Under the pieces are notes generated by a model. That model was not told where the DNA came from, did not search any database, and saw only the letters and a program-made list of their open reading frames with translations. Below are positions 4,371-44,467 of a DNA stretch of 46,341 bases, one piece after another. The DNA is from Catajapyx aquilonaris (lineage: Eukaryota): the NCBI GenBank assembly GCA_000934665.2, contig KZ538815.1:1-46341 (forward strand), in the 5' to 3' direction. Made by a program: the position numbers and the translations under genes. Every line of letters starts with the position of its first letter. The stretch's first letter is position 1.

Positions 4371-6637
4371 CTATTCGCCATAAGGTGCAAGTGTCGCCAC
4401 CAGTGTTTTTGCTTCTCTTTGCACATGTTCGTAGTCTGCTTTCTTTTCTTCTGGGACATAATCAACATCGGCAGCCAGTTTCTTGGCGACGTCATGCAGC
4501 GTTCTAGCTCGCAACAACACCCGACGCATGTCGTCACCTAAAAATAAACAAGTATTTGGATCAAATATGTACAGCCAATGTTGCAATGGTAAATGTGGTA
4601 TTTTCGCTAAGACCTATAAAGTCGTAAAAATAGACATACTGTGGGAGCCCCAGGTGGTAGCCAAACGCAAGACCATCACTTTCAGTTTACTGCCACACTC
4701 AGTTCGTTTAAGGGCTGCTGTAATGACTTCCCCTGGTGCAACTGGAGAGCTTCTTGGAATTTCTGACAGAGCAGTAATTACTGAGGTTTTGTTGTTCTGA
4801 GCTGCTTGCGTTAGAACAGTTAACCCCTGTGCTGCTTCAAACTGCATCAGCTCATGTTCTGAGGTGGCCAAGGTAGAAAGTAGACATTGCAGACCTCCAG
4901 CCTGAATAATGTTGGCTGCTACAAGGCCTGCCTCGGAAGTGTCAGAAGGACCCATATTGCACAACACCCACGAGATCAGGCGGTTTGCTTCCCCTTCCAC
5001 TCCTGGGTGATCTGGTGTCTTACACCATCCGACCAACCTTTCCATGAGGCCTGGATGAAGCCCAACTTGGATAGCAGCGTCTTGCCGGCCATCCACAGCC
5101 ATACGAAGCGTTCCCAAGAGCTTGAACACAACTGGGAAGGCCTGTACTGGGCTGGGACCAGCATCCTCAATTTCCACGTCAGCAAGCTTGGTTGTGTTTT
5201 GTTCCTTAACGGGTCCACTCATATTACGTGGAGAACAAGGTGCACTGCATGGTTGAGCACCGCTTTGCCCAGAAGTAGATTTGGTGGTGACAACTTTAGC
5301 ACAAGATGCACTGCAAGGTTTTGGTGGAGTAATGCCTTGCGCATAAGTAGGTTTGGTGTCACTAACTAGAGCAGAATATGGGTTAATTTCTTTTCCACCT
5401 TCATTACCTTGAATAGGAATGGGCTCGTTAGTGTCAGAGCCACCATTCTCTGGTTTCTCTCCAGACACGAGGGGAAGCAGAGCCTCTAGCAATCCCTGTT
5501 CCTGAACCAGTTGTGCCTTGTTGCATGAGGGAACTGATAAGTTCCTAAGAGCTGAGAGTAATGCGTGCTGCAAGCGAATGTCCTCTGATGATAGCTCAGA
5601 AGAGAGCAGTGCTATGAGGTGACGTGACACACCTCTCTCAACCAACTGCCGACAGTGGGCATCAGACCTGGCAAAATTGCCTATTGCCACAGCTCCTGCA
5701 ACCCTCAGCTCTGCTTCTTGCGCTTCCCACTCCTCATCCTCCTCCTCATCTGATTGGACATCCTGAGGTGGATGGAGCCAAGAGAGGAGGCACTTGAATA
5801 CAGGCCCATCCCCATCTTGGTAAAGTAAGGTCATTGCTTCATCACCAGTCAGCACCAAGGTCAGCAGGTCACACCCCATCCGAACCAGGGGATCACTGGA
5901 TGAAGCAATGTGATCAGGGTCAGGACTACTTCTCCGCTTGCCTCGCCTCTTGTCCAGTAAATTGGCCAGGGTGTGGCAGACTCCTTGTTTTGCCAGCTGG
6001 GTCTTCACAGCATCAGATTCACTTTGGCTCTGGAGAAGATCCAAGCACATCTCAAGTACTTCAGGAGAGGAAGTGGAACTTAGAACATCATTAGCCACTC
6101 GACATGCCCTTGCATCTTCCAACAGGTCGCTACACAGGCCAAAATCTACCAAGGCGCAGAGTACTAGCAGGGCATTAGCTCGAAGCTCCTCTCCTTCTTT
6201 GAGCCCTTCCACTGTCTCTCCTTCCAGATTCCCAGCCTCTCCAGTCTTACCCTCTTCCAGAAATTGTAGCATGGCTGATGCCAATTTTTTTGCATCCAAC
6301 TCTTGCCCTAAAGTGGGTTCCCAACTGGACATCAGATTGAGAAGACATCCAGAAGCTCTCAGGCGAACACGTCTCTCCTCGACCCATGACAACGAAGGAC
6401 CTGATTCCTGTCAATAATAAAAGAATCAGTGAACATAATTAATAATACACTAATGAAAATCTACAGTACTTTTTACCAATCATAACTAGAAAAACTGGCA
6501 TTTCATGAGGGTGCAAAACATTTGACACTGAAGACGTAATGAGCTCTTAGGAAGCATTATATGACAGCAACAACAATAGCTGTAATTAGTTGTCAGCATT
6601 TAAATATCCTTATAGTATAAACGAGAGTGGATGTACG

Positions 6638-6699
<62 letters not shown>

Positions 6700-9600
6700 C
6701 AACAACAACAATAACAACTGAAGCAGTGGTGGCAGAGGGGATATGGTATCTGACTGCTAATCGAGAGGTCCTGGGTTCGAATCCCGGTGCCGGCAACTCT
6801 AACCGTGGTTTTCTGTGGTTTCCCACGGTTCCTCCAGGAGAATTCCGGAGTTGTTTCCTAAACTAATAGGCCACAGCCGCCTCCTTCCTTTCCTATCCTA
6901 TCCCAAAAAGCGTAGTAAAAACGAAACGAAGAGTTCCCGTCAAAAAAAACAACAAAAAAACAAAATCCCCCCTACAGAGCCGCCGGCTGATAATGGGGTA
7001 TGAATTATTATTATTATTATTATTATTATTATCATCATCATTAATAACAATAATACTAATAACAATAATAATAACAACAACAACAACAACAATAATAATA
7101 ATAATGTCACACCTATTTAAGCCACTTCCCGAGAACCGAGAGTGCAGAAATTTCTCACACCCATGCCTTACGTGTCCTTGAGTCCAGGAAAAGTCCAACA
7201 ACCGCAATTTTTGGAGTCTAAAATGAATGCCCCATGATAGGCCTCCTTGGGCCTCTTCGGGGATCATCTTTTGAATAACAGTCTTTAATCATTGCATGCG
7301 CTGTGATGGATTTGGATTGCGGGAGGAAACTGGAGAACCCCGAGAAAACCCACGCAAACACGGAGAGAACCCATTGAAACTCTAGCCACATAAGTATCCT
7401 CTGTCCGACCCGGGGATCGAACTCGGGACCTTAGAGGTGGAAGGCTGAGGTGCTAACTCCTCCACCACCGTGTTGCCCTTTCAATTATTGGAGTCTAACT
7501 ACCCCAAATGCCCCAAAATGGTTTTTCATGTTGTTATGTACCCACTGTTACCATTGGCAGAGACTGTTGTTGGTATTGAGAAATGAAATATATGATTGTG
7601 TTCCTGCTGCTATTACTGGGATTTTTTACTGTGGCATTTACTGCGACGTAATGTCACGTCCTCTCCATTCGAATTGAGAGGCACGGTAAGACGAGTACGG
7701 TGCGTACAGCGGCTCTCTAGCCATGCCGGTTGCACTGAACAAGGCGCTCTCATGCTCTCCCACCTTCCCACGCAAAGGATGGGGCCGGGCTTGGACCTCG
7801 GAAACCCCTCTTCGCGACCTGCCCATGCAATGGTGCACCGAGAAATGGCGGAGGATGTCGAGCACCGATGTCTCTGTACAGGCAGGAATGACAGCACGCA
7901 TACCTCATAGACGTCATCCTCATCGAAAAATCGCGAAAAATGTTTCTTGCGGTGGACAGACTGCTGCGTGAGGCCGGTACCGGTCGGTACATTACGAGGC
8001 AGGCGAGATACGTCAGGTACGTACAGTAGTACAGTGTGTCGTATACCTGTACTGTAGTACAGCACTGCACTGGCTGGAGTGCACAGTACTGTAACAGTAC
8101 TGTATCACACATCATGACAGGTGCATCGTCCTCGTACCGCACGTACCATAGCAATGGAGGAAGACGGTCTGAACATGGTAGCCATGGACCCATTGATCAG
8201 CCCCTGTGAAGTTGGTATGTGTACTGTCAGAACGCATACCGTGACTACAGTAAATGCTGGAACTGGCGCCTATTCGCTCATATGCTGTCATGGATGATCC
8301 TTCACACATTGCAATGAATGCTGTGCACTCTACGACCGACTTCACGGGAGCTGATAGACAGGTCCATGGCTACCATCGTCGGCTACCATGTCCAGAATGT
8401 CTTCCTCCATTGCTATGGTACGTGCACCTGTCCTGATGTGCGATACAGTACTGTTACAGTACGGTACTGTACACTACTGTACACAGGCATTATCCAGCCA
8501 GTGCAGTGCTGTACTACAGTACAGGTGTACAACATTCTGTACTACTGTACGTACCTGACGTATCTCGCCTGCCTCGCAATGTACCGACTGGTACCGGCCT
8601 CACACAGCAGTCTGTCCACCGCAAGTAACATTTTTCGCGATTTTTCGATGAGGATGACGTCTACGAGGTATGCGTGCTGTCATTCCTGCCTATACAGAGA
8701 CATTGGTGCTTGACATCCTCCGCCAATTCTCAGTGGTGCACCGTTGCATGGGCAAGTCACGAAGATGGGTTGCAGAGGTCCAAGCTGGGCCCCATGTTTT
8801 GCGTGGGAAGGCTGGAGAGCATGAGAGCGCCTTGTTCAGTGCAACCGGCAGCGGCATGGCTAGAGAGCCGCTGTACGCACTGCACTTGCCTTTCCGTGCC
8901 TCTCAATTCGAATGGAAAGGACGTGATGTCCCAACGTAATAAAAAATCGATTACTCCCTTATTTCTAATTGTTTTATAAAACTGACCAGGGTTATCACCA
9001 CCAACGATTTTTCCCCACCTCCTCGCACGTGCTTGACCCGTGACTCTGATACGCCCTGTTTAGGCACAACATTACACTGTGGGATGACATCTTTTGAATA
9101 TGTCATCTGGGATATCATTTAAAAAATCAATCCTGATTATATTGGCATAACTTAATCATGTCCTCAAGTAACGACACTGTAAATAGAATCATTATCAAAC
9201 TACATCATGTCACTGCAACAGAGAGGCAGTTCATTTGTCGGTGGAAATGGTGCAGTAAGAAAGAGGACTAGGTAAATATTAATGAGTTTTGCAATTCTCT
9301 GAACCCCCCCCCNCCCCCCCCCATCAGGTTTGCCTGCATGCTGGAAAGACATGCATCAGAGTTAGGCACAGATGTCCTGCTTCGGAATAATTGTCGTCTG
9401 TTGGTCTTTGTCTTGTCGTGCTATGGTCTGCAGTTTTAGACGTACAGTACAGTGCTGCACACGTATGATAACTAAGGACCATGTCCCCTAATGGCAAATG
9501 CCCAATGGGGTAAAATAAAATATAAATAAAAAATAACCAAGGACCATGTTTGCCCTTCGTACTTGGAAATTATCATGCTACTTTTTGATCACATTTCAAA

Positions 9601-15956: not shown

Positions 15957-16494
15957 GTATCTGCGTTGTAGATAATATGTTTCGGATTATTATCTGCGTT
16001 GCGCATTACATTATAATCCGTGTTGAGGATTATTATGTGTTGCGGATTATCTGTGTGGAGGATAATGTGTGTTGAGGATTATTATTGCGGATTATTTTCT
16101 GTATTCCGGATTATAATCCGTGTTAAGGATTATTATGTGTTGCGGATTATCTGTGTGGAGGATAATGTGTGTTGTCGTGTTGAGGATTATTATTACGGAT
16201 TTATTATCTGCGTTGCGCGTTATAATCCGTGTTGAGGATTATTATTGCGGCTTATAATCCGCGTTCAGGATTAATACATGTTGCAGATTATTATCTGCAT
16301 TATTAGCTGTATTTGTGATTGTAATCCGTGTTTCAGATTATCTGTGTTGTGGATAATAATGTATGTTGAGGATTATTATGTGTTGCGGATTATGTTTTGA
16401 GGACAATATGTGTTGATGATTATTATTGCGGATTATTTTCTGTATTGCGGATTATAATCCGTGTTGAGGATTATTATCTGCGTACTGCGTTGCG

Positions 16495-16566
<72 letters not shown>

Positions 16567-17446
16567 ATCCGTGTTGAGGATTAGTATGTGTAGCGGATTA
16601 TCTGTGTTGAGGATTATTATTGCGGATTATTCTCTGTATTTCGGATTATCTGCGCTGCGGATTATTCTGTGTATTGCGGATTATAATCCGTGTTGAGGAT
16701 AATGTGTGTTGTGTTGATGATTATTATTGCGATTATTTTCTGTATTGCGGATTATCTGTGTGGAGGATAATGTGTGTTGTGTTGATGATTATTATTGCGG
16801 ATTATAATCCGTGTTTCGGATTATCTGTGTTGTGGATAATAATGTACAGGTATGTTGAGGATTATTATCTGTGTTGAGGATAATAATGGGTGTTGAGGAT
16901 TATTATCTGCGTTGCGCATTATAATCCGCGTTGTGGATTATTATGTGTTGCAGATTATAATCCTTGTTGCGGATTATCCGTGTTGAGAATTATTATGTGT
17001 TGCGGATGATCTGTGTTGAGGATTATTATTGCGGCTTATAATCCGCGTTGAAGATTATTATAAGTTGCAGATTATTATCTGCATTATTAGCTGTAATTGG
17101 GATTATAATCCGTGTTCGGATTATCTGCGTTGCGGATTATTCTGTTTTGCGGATTATAATCCTCAACACAGATATAATTATCTGTGTTGTGGATACTAAT
17201 GTATGTTGAGGATTATTATGTGTTGAGGATAATAATGGGTGTTGAGGATTATTATTTTCTGTATTGCGGATTATAATCCGCGTTGAGGATTATCTGTGTT
17301 GAGGATAATAATGGGTGTAGTTGAGGATTATTATAATTTGTATTTCGGATTATCTGTGTTGCGGATTATAATCCGTGTTCAGAATATCTGTGTTTCAGAT
17401 AATAATGCGTCGAGGGATTATTCTCTGCATTGCGGATTACACGGTA
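15957..17446. repeat. Irregular tandem array of GGATTA / TGTGTTG / TATAATCC modules with an embedded (ATT)n microsatellite
   Basis: Variable 13-22 bp units such as TGTGTTGAGGATTATTA and TGCGGATTATAATCCG; (ATT)n at about 16496-16562. Confidence 0.9.
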
Positions 17447-20058: not shown

Positions 20059-23000
20059 TCAGGAATTGCAAACTTTGCACACCAAGTCCTCCATTTGTTG
20101 GTCAAAATCAGGACTAGCAGATGATGCTTCATCATCTGGGGTACCAGGCGTCACGTCATCTTCCACCAAGGTGCCATTGTCATCAGCAGTGCTGGAGTCA
20201 GGGGGGGTTCCAGGAGGCTGGGGGCCACCATTGTCAGTAGGTGTTGTTGACATGACAGTTGCTGAGCCATTGTTGTCAACAGCAGCATCAGAGGTTGCTC
20301 CGCTGGTACCAGCAGTGGCTGAGTCATCGGCATCGTCATCATCATCAGCAAGGTCATCCGGTAACCCTGATGGCCTCTGAAGCTTTGCCAGCTCCTTCTT
20401 CAGTTGGGCATAATGGCGCTAGTTGACAAGAAAAGTACTTACTACACGTACACTCCGCTATCCTAGTGACAACCTTATAACGAATCATCCTGACACATCC
20501 CCTCCAACAACATGCCTGGCCCTGCTACACACAAGTTTTACGTATTTACAGTTTACTTGTTGTCACTTGAGTTTCAGCTTACAATCTGAAGTTACAGTAA
20601 GAAATTAACTCCCCTTCAGAAAAGAGACAACATTTTGTGAATGCTTACGAAATTATTTTAATGCCAGAGCGCCTCAAGTGTTACTGATTCTTTGGTTTCG
20701 CATTTTTCTATGACTAATGATTACCTTCATTGCAGCTGCATTAAGAGTAAGTGCCCTGGCAGTGGGCTGCTGGCTAGCCTGTGCTTGGGCGTCTTCCAGC
20801 CATGACTGCACCTGCTGCAGGACCTGCTTCCTCTTCAGCCAAAAATGGGTGTGGACTGCCTCACGGAAACAGGCAGAGGGGTTCCTCAGTTGCTCCAGGA
20901 CTGCCCACCTCACACAGGCCTGCCTCACATTGGAGTTGTACTCCCTGGAGCTCTGGTTACCTGAAGAAGTGCCCCTTGACCTCTCATACCCTGGTTCATT
21001 GAAGTATGGCTCTGGGACTAGGATGAGAGACTGGATTGACACCAGGACCTGCAAGGAAGCAAAAGCAGACGATATTAAATAGTCACTTGATTATAATTTT
21101 AGACAAATTGTTCATTTGATATGAGACGAAGCATGTAAGACTGCTCGAACACACAACTGGATTTCTAGGAATTTGTAACAAGGGCAAATAGGAAACTGCA
21201 CCTGTAGGAAACTTGAAGTTGATGGATTCCACTTCTCCTCTGGGCGTCCATGCCACGTGTTGAGAACAGACAAGCAAACCTTGCCATCTGAATAGAGATT
21301 AGGGTTGAAGCGAACACTTCGATGCCCTGTTGTCTCTAGGTTCACCAGCATTGGAGCAGCAGGGTAGTCCGCAGGGAAGAATACGTCAAACTCAAAGCAG
21401 CCATTGGCATATGGAGTATCTGCTGGCCCAGTTATGAGCACCTGTCAAGAATAAGGGGCCCACATTTAATAACAAATTTCAGTTAAATGAAGACCTCCAA
21501 TTTAACTCAAACCCCGTACCTTCATCACATCCAAACGGTCAACATCACACCGGACAAAGACAGATGAAGATGCTGACAGTGGTAAGCTAGTAGAAAGTGT
21601 CACAGCCTCTTGCGCTAACCTCTTCAGACGCTCAGGATGAAGGGAGCGAGAACCAGAAGACCTTACATTTGCCTCAAAGTGATGTGAGACTGCAAACCTC
21701 ACTCCACTGGAAGTTCCACTGTCTGGGTCCGCTTCTGCATCCACAATCATCTCATAGGTGTCAAACTGTAGCCGACGCATAGCCTCTACATACACTTCAT
21801 CTGCATCTCTCTGGCGTAATGGGCGCGACACAGCACCCGAGGATGTAGGCTCATCATCAGAACCATCATCAGAATTTGTGGAAGGAAAAGAACGTCGGCC
21901 CATACGGTGAGCAGCATTCTGGACCAGCTGGTAGGTCAGGCGAATGTCAGGTATGAGTGTAGCCATGCCCTCGTCAGCTTCTGAATTGGTATGATCTGCT
22001 GGCGCAGGTGAAGATAACACACCAGGAGATTCAATACTGGTCTGCGTTGCCTTTGATTTGCTCCTGAAAGTAGATGTATACATTTACAGGACTCTGGCAG
22101 ATTGATTAAAAGTTAAAGAGCACACATGCACACAGGTTCTGATAAATTTATCAATAATTGGCATAAATTTACTCAGGATAGGGAGTGAGAGCACAACAGT
22201 GAAGGACATCCTGCATGCTCACATTTTGACTGACCACACTTGATGGAGAGACAAGTGTATAATGATGTGAACTTTCAGTGGCAATCATGGTTCAATTCAA
22301 ATTTGACATTGAACAGTATTATCAGGAAATGCTAATGGATAACATCCCTAGTCAATAAAAGGTGCACTTACTTAAACCTTGCAGTGGCATCACCTCGTAG
22401 TCGACTGGCATATGTATCAACACACGACTTCATCCTGGCCAGCAACGTGTGAACTGGTGGATGATGTCGCTGGGCACTCTCACCATTACTGCAAGAATTG
22501 TGACCATTTGGCATAAGCAAGGGTGCCAATGTCTGGCAAGATGCTAGCGCCCTTAGCGTAGCCAATACAGCGCGGTAGAGAGGCACGTGTCGAGCCATAT
22601 CAAGCACAGAGTCATTGCGAAGGTATGATGCCAACGCTGGTATGAGACAGGACTGTGCTAGTGCATCAGGGACGCTGTCAGGCAACACAGCAGCCATCGA
22701 ATCTTGCTCTTCCTCCATATCACCATTTGCACTGCAGCCATCTCCATCTTGTAGGTAACTCGCCAGCACTTGAAGCAGCACCGTCACATATTCCTCTTCA
22801 CTCCTCTGACGCAGCAAGGCTTGTTCTACATCCCATGATTGTGCAACACTACCAGTTCCAAACCCAGTACCTTTGGCCCAGTACCGGTCTTCTGGAGCTT
22901 TGGCTCCAGGACAAGCTGTTGAGGATGAATTGTTACCCCCACTAGGAAGGTGTGTGAATAGTGCCAATGACGCTAGCAGCAACTGCAGTGCTCCAACCTC

Positions 23001-29000: not shown

Positions 29001-32000
29001 TTGAAAAATAGTGGAACGTTTTTTTGCACAGTTAGAGGGCGAAATTCAGATCCTTATTAGTCTGATGACCGCAATTACTAGCTGTAAAATGGGATCAACT
29101 TACAGGTGCATCAGGTGAATGGAGTTGTGAAAAGACAGTGTCAAAACAATGGCGAACTGCCTCGGATGAATCAGCTTGCGCAGTAACAGTAGCAGGCTGT
29201 GCTGGCCTTTGTGCTGGTTGAACCAATGGTGTTGCCACAGCGCGACTAAGGACATCAGCTTGAGCAGCAGCAATTCTGCGGAGGCGTACTTCTGCACCGA
29301 CATCTAGCCCCAGCTCCATTCGTGCATCAATTGCAGTTGACATAGATGTATCGATTCGTGTGGCTGCAGCAGCAGCATTGGCAGCACGTCTAGCAGCCTT
29401 TGAGGCCATGGCAGCCCGGCGGAAGCCAGAGCAACGGCGATCCAGTATGCCCCCCATCGCATTTTCCATCAGATTCTCCACTTCTGAATCCGAGTCAGTG
29501 GGGGAGGGGAAGTCAGCACCTAAGATGCAATGACCTGTAAGTTGATTTTATTCAAACAATGTAAATCCATTCTTGCAAAAAACCACACTTGTCCAAAATT
29601 ATAAGGAACCAATGTCTCACAACCAAAGTAACTTTTCTTACCCTCCTGATTTTTGAAAATTTGTGTAATTTCTAATTCTGCTTGGCCTATAGTGTTGAGA
29701 AAACATCACCTCCGCTGCTAATTTCCACGTTAGCAGGGTGAAAATACAGCCAAAAGGCAATGTTCCAAAGCCACAACACTTGCATCCAGTCGCAAGTCGC
29801 TGGCCAGCGCCAACGAGGAATAAATAGGGCACAGGCAGGCTGTAAAGGTCCTTTGCTATGGCACTTCACAGCAAGAACACGCGCGAATTTGAATATTTTT
29901 GCTTTATGAGCTCCTTTAATGCACTATTCTACGTATTAATTCCGTAAGTACGAAAAAAATATTCAAATTCGCGTGTGTTCTTGCTGCGAAGTGCCATGGT
30001 AAAACCATCAAAGATGGCGGACCTTTACAGCCTGCCTGTGCTCTATTTATCCCTCTTTGGTGCTGGCCGGCGACTCGCGACCGGATGCAAGTGTTGTGGC
30101 TTTGGAATATTGCCTTTTGGCTGTATTTTCACCCTGCTAACGTGGAAATTAGCAGCGGAGGTGATGTTTTCTCAACACTATAGGCCAAGCAGAATTAGAA
30201 ATTACACAAATTTTCAAAATTCAGGAGGGTAAGAAAAGTTACTTCGGTTGTCAGACACTTGTCCCACCAAGCCTGAGATACTATTATATCAGGGTTATAA
30301 AACAGTTGAAATTATTCATGCAGCAGTAGGGCTCCAACAAGTTCACCCTAAATTAGCTTTCTCTCTTCACACACAGTATCCAACATCAAATCTCACTGCA
30401 TATAACGTAATGTATCAAAACCACTGTGCTGTATATTTCGGTGGAGAAGACACATTTATGTGTTTTCCGGGAAACCTGCTGTCGAGCCTTAAACCGCGAT
30501 TGCTGTATTTTTGGCTACTACGGCAAATGCAATTGATTTCAATATAAATTCAGTGCAATTATTACAAATATGTCCATGCATTTTAAAGGAAAATTAAATT
30601 CAAAAATCAAGATGTCTGCAAGCTCCAAACAATAGCGAAGTCTCACCAGTGGTTTGTTCTTCTATAAGGAGGGGATCCAAGGCTGCTGCATCCAGCTCCT
30701 CCACCACTATCGTGCCAGTTGTCTCAGTGTCATTGTTGTTGCTTGTTGTGGGTTCCTCTGCAGTGGATGGTCCTGCTACTGATACAATGGCAGTCACCGA
30801 TGAGGAGGCAGATGGTGGTGGAGTAGCATCCCTTTCAGCTACCAAACAAAAGAAGCATCATTTCTGTTAAAGTAACTTAATGGTACTGAAAGGAATATGA
30901 AACACAGCCTAGAATTTGACCAAGGCAGACAACTGCAGGGTGTTTAAAACCTTTGCACATTCAACTCTGGCAGAAATAAATGTCCAATCAGTGTTGTTAT
31001 GTTTCATCAGTGAACAATCAGGAGTTTACTGGATATCGTGTAGCATCACTTCGGACAATGCCATAAAGAATGAGTTAGAAATAACTTGAACAGTTATCGG
31101 AATGATGTGTCACTAGATCTCCCATTTGGGGATCCAAATTGAGTGTGTACGTGACAAGAATAAAGCATCCCTTTACCTTATTTGACTCACACATGGAGGA
31201 GAAAGGCATTTTTCACTTACCCCTGAGGAGCTCTTGCAGCAATGTTGCTAGGGAGTGATACAACCAAGGCCTAGCGTTTGAGTCTGGAGCCACTGCCTGC
31301 CTGACAAGTGTGGCTAGTCGTTGCGCATCAGCCAGCTCCCTAACCCCAATAGTTGGCTGGCAGCAGTGGGCTAGCCTCGCAATAACCTTGCAGGCCAAGG
31401 AAGCACTGTCCCACCCTGGAGTCTCACTGTCACCACACAGCATGCCCAGCAGAGACTTGCAAACAGCCAAGACCAGGGGACGGTTCAGCACCAGGCACTG
31501 CACCTCTGCCTCCTCTGCTTCAGGTTCGTCCTTTGCCTGTTTTGTTAGAAACACAACAATATTAACCCCTTGAAATGTATAATTAAGGTCAACCAATGTG
31601 ATTTATCTTAAGTTGCATATCATTTAACAGCAGAATGCAACATAGGCAATCGTGAGCAGTCTTCCAAATATGGTGTAATTGATGCAGTGTCAAAGGCTTG
31701 GATAAGCCTGCCATGAATCATGAAGGTGTACACTACCTTGATGAGATCTTCTATTCGTAGCACTGCTGGAATTTTCCCTTTCTTTTTCTTTTTGTCTGGT
31801 TTGCTGCTCTCCATGGCTGCCTTCTTCAGCTCGGCTGTTTTAGCCACCATCTTGGCCCCAACAACTCTAGGCAGTCTCCTGCTCAGCAGGCGTGCAAGCA
31901 TGGGGTTCCCTCCTGGATCCCCAATGTGGTTGCCATTTGCACTCATGGCCATCTCTGCATGCAAGAAGTCAAATGGTGCCCGCCTTTGTGGAGCTGCTAC

Positions 32001-35000
32001 ATCCATTACAAGAGACACATAGAGTAGTGTCCAGTCCAAAAGTTGTGGGTCTTGCAACTGTCCACATGCAGCTGGTTCCAAAACTGCTTCCACAATGGCA
32101 GCACCACACCCTGCCTCCCTGGCACTCTTCTGTGCCATCCACGCCAACAACAGGAAGACTCGGTCGCGGGGAAATATTGCATTCTGGCTCTGCCCAAACA
32201 GGTCTTGCAACTGACGTGACAGAAACTGGCCCCACCATGGTGCTGAAGAACATCGGCGAACAAGTAGGGCTGCTGTTGCCAAGCGAAGATATTCACCCTG
32301 CAAGAGGATTGAAATCCAGGTTATAACTCAAATAGTTGGTCATTTCCATTAGGTCATTTAACACACTCTATTTATACTATAACTTGTTTTTGACACCCAT
32401 TATCATAATCATGATAATAAAAAGCATCAGAAGTTAAAATTTTCACATTTCTAATATAAGTTGATTAAATTATATGAATTGGTAATGAAAAAAAAACAAA
32501 AACAAACAACCTAAGCACTGTTATTGAGATATTAAAACAAAGTGACCTCCGATCAGTAATGCTGAGATTCGTCAGAAAACTTGTCAGGAGTTTACTGGAT
32601 ATTGTTTGGCATCATTTCGGATTAGGCCACAACTACTTTGCAAGTTCTTTAAGCAAGTTGAGCATTAACACTGATATTGTTCTGCCTGTCTACTACTACT
32701 AATCTTCTATTGCACTAAAAAAAAACTAAGAAGCTTCCCAGGTAAAAGAGGTACTTTACCTGTGAGACACACAAACGCCGGAACAAATCTTGACACTCCT
32801 GGGAGGAGACATCAACACCATCACCACAGTTCAGCAGCACATCAACACACCTCTCAGTAAGGGCTGCAAGCTGTTCCGTTGAAGGTGGTGATTCCACTCC
32901 CTTTGCTGTTCCTCCCAACCTCTTGATAGCACCACGTACTACATTGAGTTGCTGGCGATAGGCCTGGCATTCTCTGTACACTGCTGTCAGCTCCTCATCA
33001 GGGCTTTCATCTACGAACATGTTACCACACTGTGAAGACATCATAGATCTGAGCCTCCCACATGACAAAGCATATCTGCATCGCATGTCCTCCAGCAATG
33101 CACCAAGAACCCTGCGGTGTTCAGGGCGTCGGACAGGCACTCCATAGAAGCATCCCACTGGTATCCGACAACGAGTTGTGCTCATCCCATGCCGCCCTAC
33201 AGCTGTCAGACGGAGGTACCTGCACCTAAGTGGTGGTTGTAGGTCAGGCAATACTAATGGGCGGGCACCAATGTCAGTGCAAGTGGCCAGCCTTGTACCA
33301 TCTCGGTCTTCGCCATCCTCCCAAGCATCAAGTGTAAGTGTCAAGAGGTCTGGACAGGAGGGGACCCAAACATCAGACAACAGGACAGGACAGCCAAAGT
33401 CCAGCACAACAAAGCGACGGGCTCCTGAGTGCATGCGCTCAATCACTAGTGTCTGCTGGGCAGGAAGGGTGGCCAGGTGCTGCCATGATGCACTTTGTTC
33501 CTGGATAAATACAGGAAAACAAGTTTTAAAATTCATGAATGCAGGTTCTAAGTCTCAATGAAACCACAGCCTATTCCAAGCAACTCTTGAAAAGAATGTG
33601 GACTTGTTTGAAGAAGTTGAAGTTAGCAGTTGGCTCACAGATGGTAACAAGTTTCAGGAACATGCAAGTCGGATAATTTCAATCCACTACTCTCTGTGCC
33701 TGCATCAATTTCTGACCTACGATCAGTGTAGTAATGTTTCGTCAGTGAACTTCAGGAGTTTACTGGATATCAAATGGCATCATGTCGGATATGGTCAGAT
33801 TAAAAAGAAACAGGACAAAACCAGCATTCTTATCATTCAAACATACAAGCACGCACAGTGGCTCTCTTATAATGCTATTTCCAAGAGAACCCAACACTGA
33901 CTGTGAGAAGCTTATTTGACACCTCCTTAGTGTGCTGTACCTGCGGAGTTGGCTTCAGGCATGTAGGTAGAGCTGAGTCAGAAGCAGCAGCTGATGGAGA
34001 GGCATCATCTGTGTTGCCTGATGCTGATGTTGCATCAGCAGCATCAGCAGAATTGCCTGGTGAAGCAGCAGCAGCAGCTGATGGGGCAGCCATTACTTTA
34101 GCCTGCGGCTCAGCTCTCTCCACCCTTGTGCCATCAGATGCTGAGTGGCACGTGAAATGGAGAGGCTCAGATTCAAGAAGTCCTTGGAGTTGGCACCACC
34201 CAACACCTGTCGGCAACACTGCTTTTGAAGCACCACCTGAAACAAAAGTAATTTTAAAATGCATCCGAAGTAATGCTTCCGTTCGGAACTTTTTAGTCAA
34301 TAAATCAGCATGTAATTGTGTTTCAATTTCTTCCCAGAGGAACCAATGAGAGAAGCCTCTTTACCTTGTGCCCCATTGCTCCCAACACACACCAAGTCCC
34401 TCAGGTCAAACTTCTTTCCTTGCTGTCCTCCTCCGCTTGCTCCTCCCCTCCCTCTCCCGCCTCCACCCATTCCCCCTCCACCCCCTGCATGAATTACTCC
34501 TGACCAACTGGACCCGCCATGGTTGAATGGAGCTAAGATATCGGCTGTGGTGGTGGCTATCATGTGTCCTGCTGACGCAGGAGGTGGAGGTGGGGGAGGG
34601 CCAGAACCCCCTCCCACTACCTGGTGAGTCGTCAGTCCACCACTGCCTGCCATCCCATGAGACAGGCCAGCACTGATTCCACCTGGTCCCACAAGGACTG
34701 TCCCGGCAGAGGGATGGTCTCCTGGGTGGCAGGCAACCACTCCTGCATAGGTCAGCACTGTAGATGTTGACTTAGCAACACAACTTGACTCCAGATCATA
34801 CATTTCCTGCTCCAGGGGACATCCATACAGACCATACCTGCAACAAGAAAAAGAAAAGTTCAGAATTCACTTTACTCCTGCACAATAAAAATTACAATTT
34901 TATACAGCTAACTAGCAAGACCCAATGTGCCACTCACTTGGCTCTTAGAATTGAATGCGCTCTGTCAACTCTGTGGTCCAGTTGCTTTGCAGCCTGAAGT

Positions 35001-44339: not shown

Positions 44340-44467
44340 AGGCCCATTCGCACAGGTCCTCGACGGTTTTGGTCTTTGGTCGCATTGACGCTACAGACCA
44401 ATCATGACTCATGCGGCGTCAACGCAACCAAAGACCAAAACCGTCGACAGCCTGTGTGAATGGGCCT
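44340..44467. mobile_element. PIF/Harbinger-type 128-bp MITE
   Basis: TIR AGGCCCATTCGCACAGG / CCTGTGTGAATGGGCCT, an almost fully palindromic body, and a TAA target-site duplication (44337-44339 and 44468-44470). Confidence 0.85.

Follow-up and report, generated by a model that had tools for sequence, protein, structure and literature searches.

A stretch of the Catajapyx aquilonaris genome (contig KZ538815.1, 46,341 nucleotides (nt), hereafter the window) carries three short, similar units on its minus strand, each within an intron of a gene that resembles BIRC6. This arrangement raises the question of whether the units are genes for box C/D small nucleolar RNAs (snoRNAs) and, if so, to which RNA the 15-nt element that they share would pair. 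Members of the box C/D class are stable RNAs of 60–100 nt that are bound by fibrillarin, NOP56, NOP58, and SNU13, and they are characterized by a box C (RUGAUGA) near the 5′ end, a box D (CUGA) near the 3′ end, a terminal stem, and internal D′ and C′ boxes. Judged from sequence, the three units are very probably paralogous, intron-encoded box C/D snoRNAs of one unnamed family.

The units are 77–89 nt long, and a script parse returned the same layout from all three copies: stem, box C, 6 nt, the 15-mer, D′, 6–8 nt, C′, 12 nt, D, and stem (Table 1). Box C reads GTGATGC in copy 1 and ATGATGC in copies 2 and 3, D′ and D are CTGA throughout, and C′ is either CTGATGA or CTGACGA (CTGAYGA). In every copy, 21 nt separate C from D′ and exactly 12 nt separate C′ from D. 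Terminal stems of 5–7 base pairs (bp) are present in the minimum-free-energy folds of all three units (RNAfold). Copy 1 is closed by a 7-bp stem (TGTCCGA/TTGGACA), copy 2 by a 6-bp outer stem (GTGGCC/GGTCAC) and an inner stem (TCCGA/TCGGA), and copy 3 by a 6-bp outer stem (CTGACC/GGTCAG) and a short inner stem. In the outer stem, copy 2 is distinguished from copy 3 by one double compensatory change (G–C to C–G) and by one one-sided change that keeps the pair (G–U to A–U).

The 15-mer directly upstream of D′, ATATCCAGTAAACTC, has exactly three matches in the window, one in each unit and all on the minus strand, and no further match is found at up to two mismatches on either strand of the window. 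Shuffled sequence yields a mean of 0.11 matches, and none of 100 shuffles reaches three. Together with D′, this element forms a 19-nt block that is identical in the three copies. In contrast, once the boxes and the 15-mer are set aside, 18 positions can be compared without gaps, of which only 5 are invariant, with pairwise identities of 9/18, 12/18, and 6/18. At this background rate, the chance of 15 consecutive invariant columns is ~5e-9. Variable columns abut the invariant block directly on both sides; five of the six columns that separate the guide from box C differ, which argues against a single long conversion tract. The low identity outside the boxes and guide (6–12 of 18) suggests that the duplications are old, and the flanks beyond the stems, which do not align among the units, indicate that only the RNA-sized unit was kept. 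The 12-mers adjacent to D have diverged between copies as well. On these comparisons, the units are old duplicates with apparent selection on the D′ guide.

The open reading frames that surround the units on the minus strand match human/mouse BIRC6 in the Protein Data Bank over chain residues ~1800–2120 (E 3.6e-41), ~1070–1495 (E 2.2e-29), and ~1555–1620 (E 2.4e-07). A protein search with one exon returned six proteins, only partial insect BIRC6 sequences, at 33–46% identity. These matches identify the host as an animal-type BIRC6/BRUCE orthologue on the minus strand, to which the units are sense. Contigs of the one public run with the locus (X1, library type not on record) cover the exons and give two splice joints, the CT..AC ends of which correspond to GT..AG on the minus strand. 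The introns of copies 2 and 3 were inferred from GT..AG sites and the reading frame: the exon at 33500..32760 has 741 nt, and the next exon begins at 32297 in frame. In copy 3, the distance to the 5′ splice site is 157 nt from box C, and that to the 3′ splice site is 222 nt from box D; box D is 255 nt from the 3′ splice site in copy 2 and 149 nt in copy 1.

These results agree with a preliminary description of the window, which had placed the three units at the positions where they were located here. Its proposal that, of four neighbouring BIRC6 introns, three contain a single unit each, in the sense direction, is borne out by the splice joints, GT..AG sites, and frames, and the non-consensus end that it had noted for box C (RTGATGC) is present in all three parsed copies. 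The folds and the compensatory change between copies 2 and 3 confirm that the stems differ in sequence yet pair. Finally, the description had pointed to an invariant 15-mer amid diverged spacers and D-adjacent segments and had read this pattern as selection on an antisense guide; the 19 invariant nt, set against 5/18 elsewhere, and the chance estimate for the 15 columns support both the observation and its reading.

Table 1 Coordinates of the BIRC6 introns and of the parts of the three candidate snoRNA units
Feature	Position	Strand	Remarks
BIRC6 intron with copy 3	33501..33940	-	440 nt; GT 33940-33939, AG 33502-33501; flanking exons both phase 0
Candidate snoRNA copy 3	33711..33799	-	Most 5′ in gene; covariance model 99.0 bits
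Copy 3 box C	33783..33777	-	Script parse
Copy 3 C-to-guide spacer	33776..33771	-	Script parse
Copy 3 D′ guide	33770..33756	-	Exact 15-mer
Copy 3 D′	33755..33752	-	CTGA
Copy 3 D′–C′ spacer	33751..33746	-	Script parse
Copy 3 C′	33745..33739	-	Script parse
Copy 3 D guide	33738..33727	-	12 nt
Copy 3 D	33726..33723	-	CTGA
BIRC6 intron with copy 2	32298..32759	-	462 nt; GT..AG and frame continuity
Candidate snoRNA copy 2	32542..32630	-	Covariance model 99.0 bits
Copy 2 box C	32615..32609	-	Script parse
Copy 2 D′ guide	32602..32588	-	Exact 15-mer
Copy 2 D′	32587..32584	-	CTGA
Copy 2 C′	32575..32569	-	Script parse
Copy 2 D guide	32568..32557	-	12 nt
Copy 2 D	32556..32553	-	CTGA
BIRC6 intron without unit	31537..31736	-	200 nt; spliced contig joint 31535->31736 (cut +1), CT..AC ends
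BIRC6 intron with copy 1	30839..31220	-	382 nt; spliced contig joint 30838->31221
Candidate snoRNA copy 1	30981..31057	-	Most 3′ in gene; covariance model 102.1 bits
Copy 1 box C	31049..31043	-	Script parse
Copy 1 D′ guide	31036..31022	-	Exact 15-mer
Copy 1 D′	31021..31018	-	CTGA
Copy 1 C′	31010..31004	-	Script parse
Copy 1 D guide	31003..30992	-	12 nt
Copy 1 D	30991..30988	-	CTGA

A covariance model derived from copies 1–3 was applied, with filters off, to the full 46-kb stretch. As expected from its construction, the model recovers these units at 99–102 bits. Neither a fourth nor a decayed copy is found in the window, where the next match scores 10.8 bits (E 1.6), and the 200-nt intron without a unit contains no match to the model. 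A weak match at 21492–21558 (−), which runs across what appears to be the end of an exon and has no D box, was rejected. A crude motif scan of the window listed ten C/D-like candidates, of which two are copies 1 and 2 and the other eight each lack C′, D′, or both; copy 3 was missed owing to its stem mismatch. A C/D-like string at 6013–6091 (−) falls within an open BIRC6 coding frame and was also discarded.

The folds contain one further hairpin. A segment of the guide, CAGUAAAC, is able in each unit to pair, with one mismatch, with GUUCACUG or GUUUUCUG, the stretch made up of the D′–C′ spacer and the first bases of C′, and this pairing is drawn by RNAfold in every copy (31010–31036, 32575–32602, and 33745–33770, −). 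The hairpin competes with the C′/D′ motif and may either arise incidentally from the sequence of the C′ box or serve to mask the guide.

For processing, protein binding, methylation, and target, we infer the following. The three paralogous genes would encode one family of box C/D small nucleolar (or Cajal-body) RNAs, each of which would be released from its own BIRC6 intron after splicing and exonucleolytic trimming. Fibrillarin and the other core proteins would bind to the C/D motif closed by the terminal stem and to the internal C′/D′ motif. The 15-nt element upstream of D′ would serve as the working guide, pairing with its complement, GAGUUUACUGGAUAU, in the target RNA, and the 12-nt element adjacent to D, which differs between copies, is probably idle. 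In box C/D RNAs, an antisense element of at least 10 nt adjacent to D or D′ is complementary to the target, and 2′-O-methylation is placed on the target base that pairs with the fifth position upstream of D or D′. The nucleotide paired to the fifth position of this guide, and hence the predicted site of methylation, is the second U of the predicted target. The target would most likely be a lineage-variable stretch of ribosomal RNA (rRNA) or pre-rRNA, or a small nuclear RNA (snRNA); otherwise, the family would be a true orphan.

The position of the units within their introns bears on how such RNAs might be assembled. In a review (PMC5519232), the position given for human box C/D snoRNAs is ~50 nt upstream of the branch point; long external stems are described there as able to render box C/D assembly splicing-independent. 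In contrast to the human arrangement, the BIRC6 units lie 149–255 nt upstream of their 3′ splice sites, and they have extended stems. By analogy with that account, this combination of stem and distance would fit splicing-independent assembly.

For the conserved rRNA core, a test set of eukaryotic ribosomal DNA (rDNA) that contaminates prokaryote assemblies was collected by means of a primer-type motif from the 28S 5′ end (51 loci, 113,086 nt). By Rfam, the large-subunit (LSU), 5.8S, and small-subunit (SSU) genes are complete in L167, L158, and L166, and SSU is complete in eight loci. The set is probably of non-animal origin, group I introns being present in several of the loci, and animal-specific and expansion-segment sites lie outside it. 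In these 113,086 nt, the best ungapped duplex with the 15-nt guide has three mismatches. The 11-, 12-, and 13-nt cores of the guide adjacent to D′ perform no better on rDNA than shuffles (for the 12- and 13-mers, one match vs. 1.07 and none vs. 0.4, respectively), and with one bulge allowed the guide has four matches, compared with 5–34 for ten shuffled guides. The sole exception among the cores is one 11-nt match, which includes a G–U pair and falls within a variable LSU segment (L166:4205). The three D-adjacent 12-mers have 0, 1, and 2 matches on rDNA, compared with ~1.0–1.3 for shuffles. Within the 46-kb window, the complement of the guide is found only on the opposite strand of the units themselves, even with G–U pairs allowed. 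The lack of a convincing complement in 113 kb of rDNA makes a target in the conserved rRNA core unlikely. Human snRNAs, 5S, and rRNA are not known to offer more than near-misses that need a one-base bulge.

The predicted target was also sought more widely. A metagenome scan for the target 15-mer returned at least 118 loci, with diverse flanks that are unrelated to one another. Among the 118 loci listed, CTGA directly follows the guide-strand 15-mer in none, TGATG occurs within 30 nt upstream in three, none of which has CTGA as well, and no rRNA-like context recurs. From their flanks, these matches look like chance. The only viral-contig match to the 19-mer of guide and D′ (L172) has no box C upstream and was dismissed as chance. 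Among viral contigs that match the 28S motif, L170 has no Rfam rRNA match, appears protein-coding by eye, and was rejected; its best match (two mismatches, position 4473) sits in this non-rRNA sequence. L171, found by the same motif, holds only 103 nt of LSU.

Among known families, Rfam 15 at gathering scores has no match in the whole window; at E ≤ 10, the region 30900–33900 contains no snoRNA family and only two chance matches to bacterial families, and at E ≤ 5 no snoRNA family is found in the whole window. In a full-text literature search that did not extend to the supplementary tables published with snoRNA catalogues, neither the guide nor the target string turned up in any paper, and no report of BIRC6 as a snoRNA host was found among the matches listed. 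Judging from titles and excerpts, the co-mentions of BIRC6 and snoRNAs among these matches are unrelated or name BIRC6 in another context. With respect to Rfam 15 and the full text searched, the family is unnamed and undescribed; C/D families that lack annotation are a common occurrence where a genome has no snoRNA catalogue. The preliminary description fares unevenly on these points. It had found no match to conserved rRNA and did not know BIRC6 as a snoRNA host, and both statements hold for the 113 kb of eukaryotic rDNA and for the full-text search; the Rfam comparison that it had suggested, now run, points to no known family as far as tested. On the other hand, the 28S near-match with a bulge that it had offered as the closest candidate fails the bulge-tolerant rDNA search at ≤2 mismatches.

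The closest known layout is reportedly that of the U14 genes, which occur in several introns of hsc70. As in U14/hsc70, the BIRC6 units have boxes in the order C, D′, C′, and D with a terminal stem and a guide directly upstream of D′, and they are found one per intron, sense to a protein-coding host, with paralogues in neighbouring introns. Unlike intron-encoded C/D guides such as U14, the BIRC6 units have no Rfam family match, a box C that ends in C, and a host for which no report as a snoRNA host was found. A second parallel is provided by SNORD115 and SNORD116, orphan multi-copy intronic C/D snoRNAs whose mammalian host is imprinted and non-coding and carries tens of them in tandem. The BIRC6 units resemble these RNAs in that the paralogues occur one per intron, an antisense element is conserved, and no rRNA complement was found (here in foreign rDNA only); they differ in that the copies number three, the host gene is coding, and the genome is non-vertebrate-like. 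The abstract of PMC11267527 names the SNORD116 cluster. A looser resemblance is to the CAB box of the C/D class of Drosophila small Cajal-body RNAs, for which PMC4041459 and PMC5519232 give the consensus cgaGUUAnUg. Between D′ and C′, all three BIRC6 units have GUU, two bases, and CUG. Unlike in the Drosophila consensus, however, GUU is followed by C or U where the motif has A, the spacing exceeds that of the motif by one base, and CUG is the start of C′. Only GUU-NN-CUG is common to the two, and the units were not assigned a Drosophila-type CAB box. The likeness is a loose lead that was not counted as a match, but it would keep an snRNA target, the kind on which a Cajal-body guide would act, in play.

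Several observations weigh against reading the units as working box C/D snoRNAs. The last base of box C is C, and not the consensus A, in all three copies, and the inner stem of copy 3 has a C–U mismatch. The fold energies are unremarkable (z of −1.40 to −1.52, with 16–19 of 200 shuffles folding as well); such unexceptional energies are usual for box C/D RNAs and hence neutral evidence. No X1 contig extends over any of the three units, a result that is uninformative on expression. Finally, no target was found in the rDNA set, the window, or the metagenome loci listed. A different origin would be that the units are dead copies, either snoRNA-derived retrocopies or a short interspersed repeat in introns, with a 15-mer that is shared through recent copying or conversion. 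Although snoRNA-derived repeats exist in animals, this origin is highly improbable here. The copies are old, with only 6–12 of 18 neutral-like positions shared pairwise, yet boxes, stems, and guide are intact in all three. There are no A-tails and no shared flanks, all three units are sense within one gene, and the variable columns on both sides of the invariant block are unlike a conversion tract. The 46 kb also hold no fourth or decayed copy, as the 10.8-bit score of the next match illustrates.

Two further explanations accept the units as snoRNAs and concern the partner of the guide. The units could belong to a described family of ordinary rRNA or snRNA methylation guides that was missed by narrow Rfam models, with a known site that has diverged in this lineage. 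Rfam C/D models are short and often taxon-bound, the probably non-animal origin of the tested rDNA leaves animal-specific and expansion-segment sites outside the test, and the 11-nt match with one G–U pair (L166:4205) does fall in a variable LSU part. This explanation is nonetheless unlikely, given that no snoRNA family appears at E ≤ 10 (30900–33900) or E ≤ 5 (window), that three mismatches remain in the best ungapped rDNA duplex, that the 12- and 13-mer cores do not exceed shuffles, and that the bulge-tolerant search gives fewer matches than any shuffled guide. Moreover, known conserved sites lie in conserved sequence, which the rDNA set covers. The other explanation is a true orphan family, in which the element would have a messenger RNA (mRNA) or some other non-canonical RNA as its target, or would function with no methylation, as has been suggested for SNORD115/116. 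Strong selection on a guide that has no complement in conserved rRNA, the missing Rfam match, and the retention of three copies in a non-ribosomal host gene all speak for this explanation. However, the failure to find a target extends only to foreign rDNA, the window, and the metagenome loci listed, with the organism's own RNAs outside the search; most C/D guides with a clean D′-adjacent element have rRNA or snRNA targets, and the 46-kb host region holds no complement. A true orphan family is thus possible but doubtful, and the same tentative standing is given to its lineage-restricted form, in which three old paralogues in a non-ribosomal host would carry a guide without an rRNA or snRNA partner and with a selected, non-canonical target.

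Other features of the window were recorded in passing. A long inverted repeat at 29612–30257, with arms of ~290 nt (local alignment score 243), occupies the BIRC6 intron just downstream of the copy 1 exon. It gives mirrored peptides on both strands in the list of open reading frames and a sub-threshold Rfam match of the MIR530 hairpin type (53.8 bits, gathering score 85). Read depth in run X1 is raised over this repeat and variant letters are many, as expected for a dispersed foldback or a repeat like a miniature inverted-repeat transposable element. A hairpin at 44351–44456 (−) has sub-threshold matches to MIR2619 (52.1 bits, gathering score 113) and mir-4677 (31.2 bits), plant-named microRNA families, and is probably repeat-derived rather than a microRNA gene. 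At 15978–17439, a dense 1.5-kb intronic array of imperfect direct repeats has a 19-nt period and longer ones, with units such as TGTTGAGGATTATTATCTG, and encloses a TTA-type trinucleotide run at ~16500–16560. Two TAA/CAA-type trinucleotide repeat blocks, ~350 nt apart, lie at 6600–7140.

If the three units are box C/D snoRNAs, as is preferred here, an organism for which no snoRNA annotation is at hand would gain an unnamed guide family and a predicted 2′-O-methylated U within GAGUU*UACUGGAUAU. Finds of this sort are fairly ordinary in unstudied genomes. Should the target be a lineage-specific rRNA site, the result would be routine annotation; specialists in non-canonical snoRNA function would have an interest in it only if the guide has a target in neither rRNA nor snRNA. 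If the orphan explanation were true, a non-canonical RNA, such as an mRNA or other regulatory RNA, would be under selection as a target in an invertebrate-type genome. The three paralogues would illustrate cleanly how selection can hold a guide by itself amid sequence that otherwise drifts, and this guide-only selection would make the target directly searchable given the rRNA, snRNA, and transcriptome of the species.

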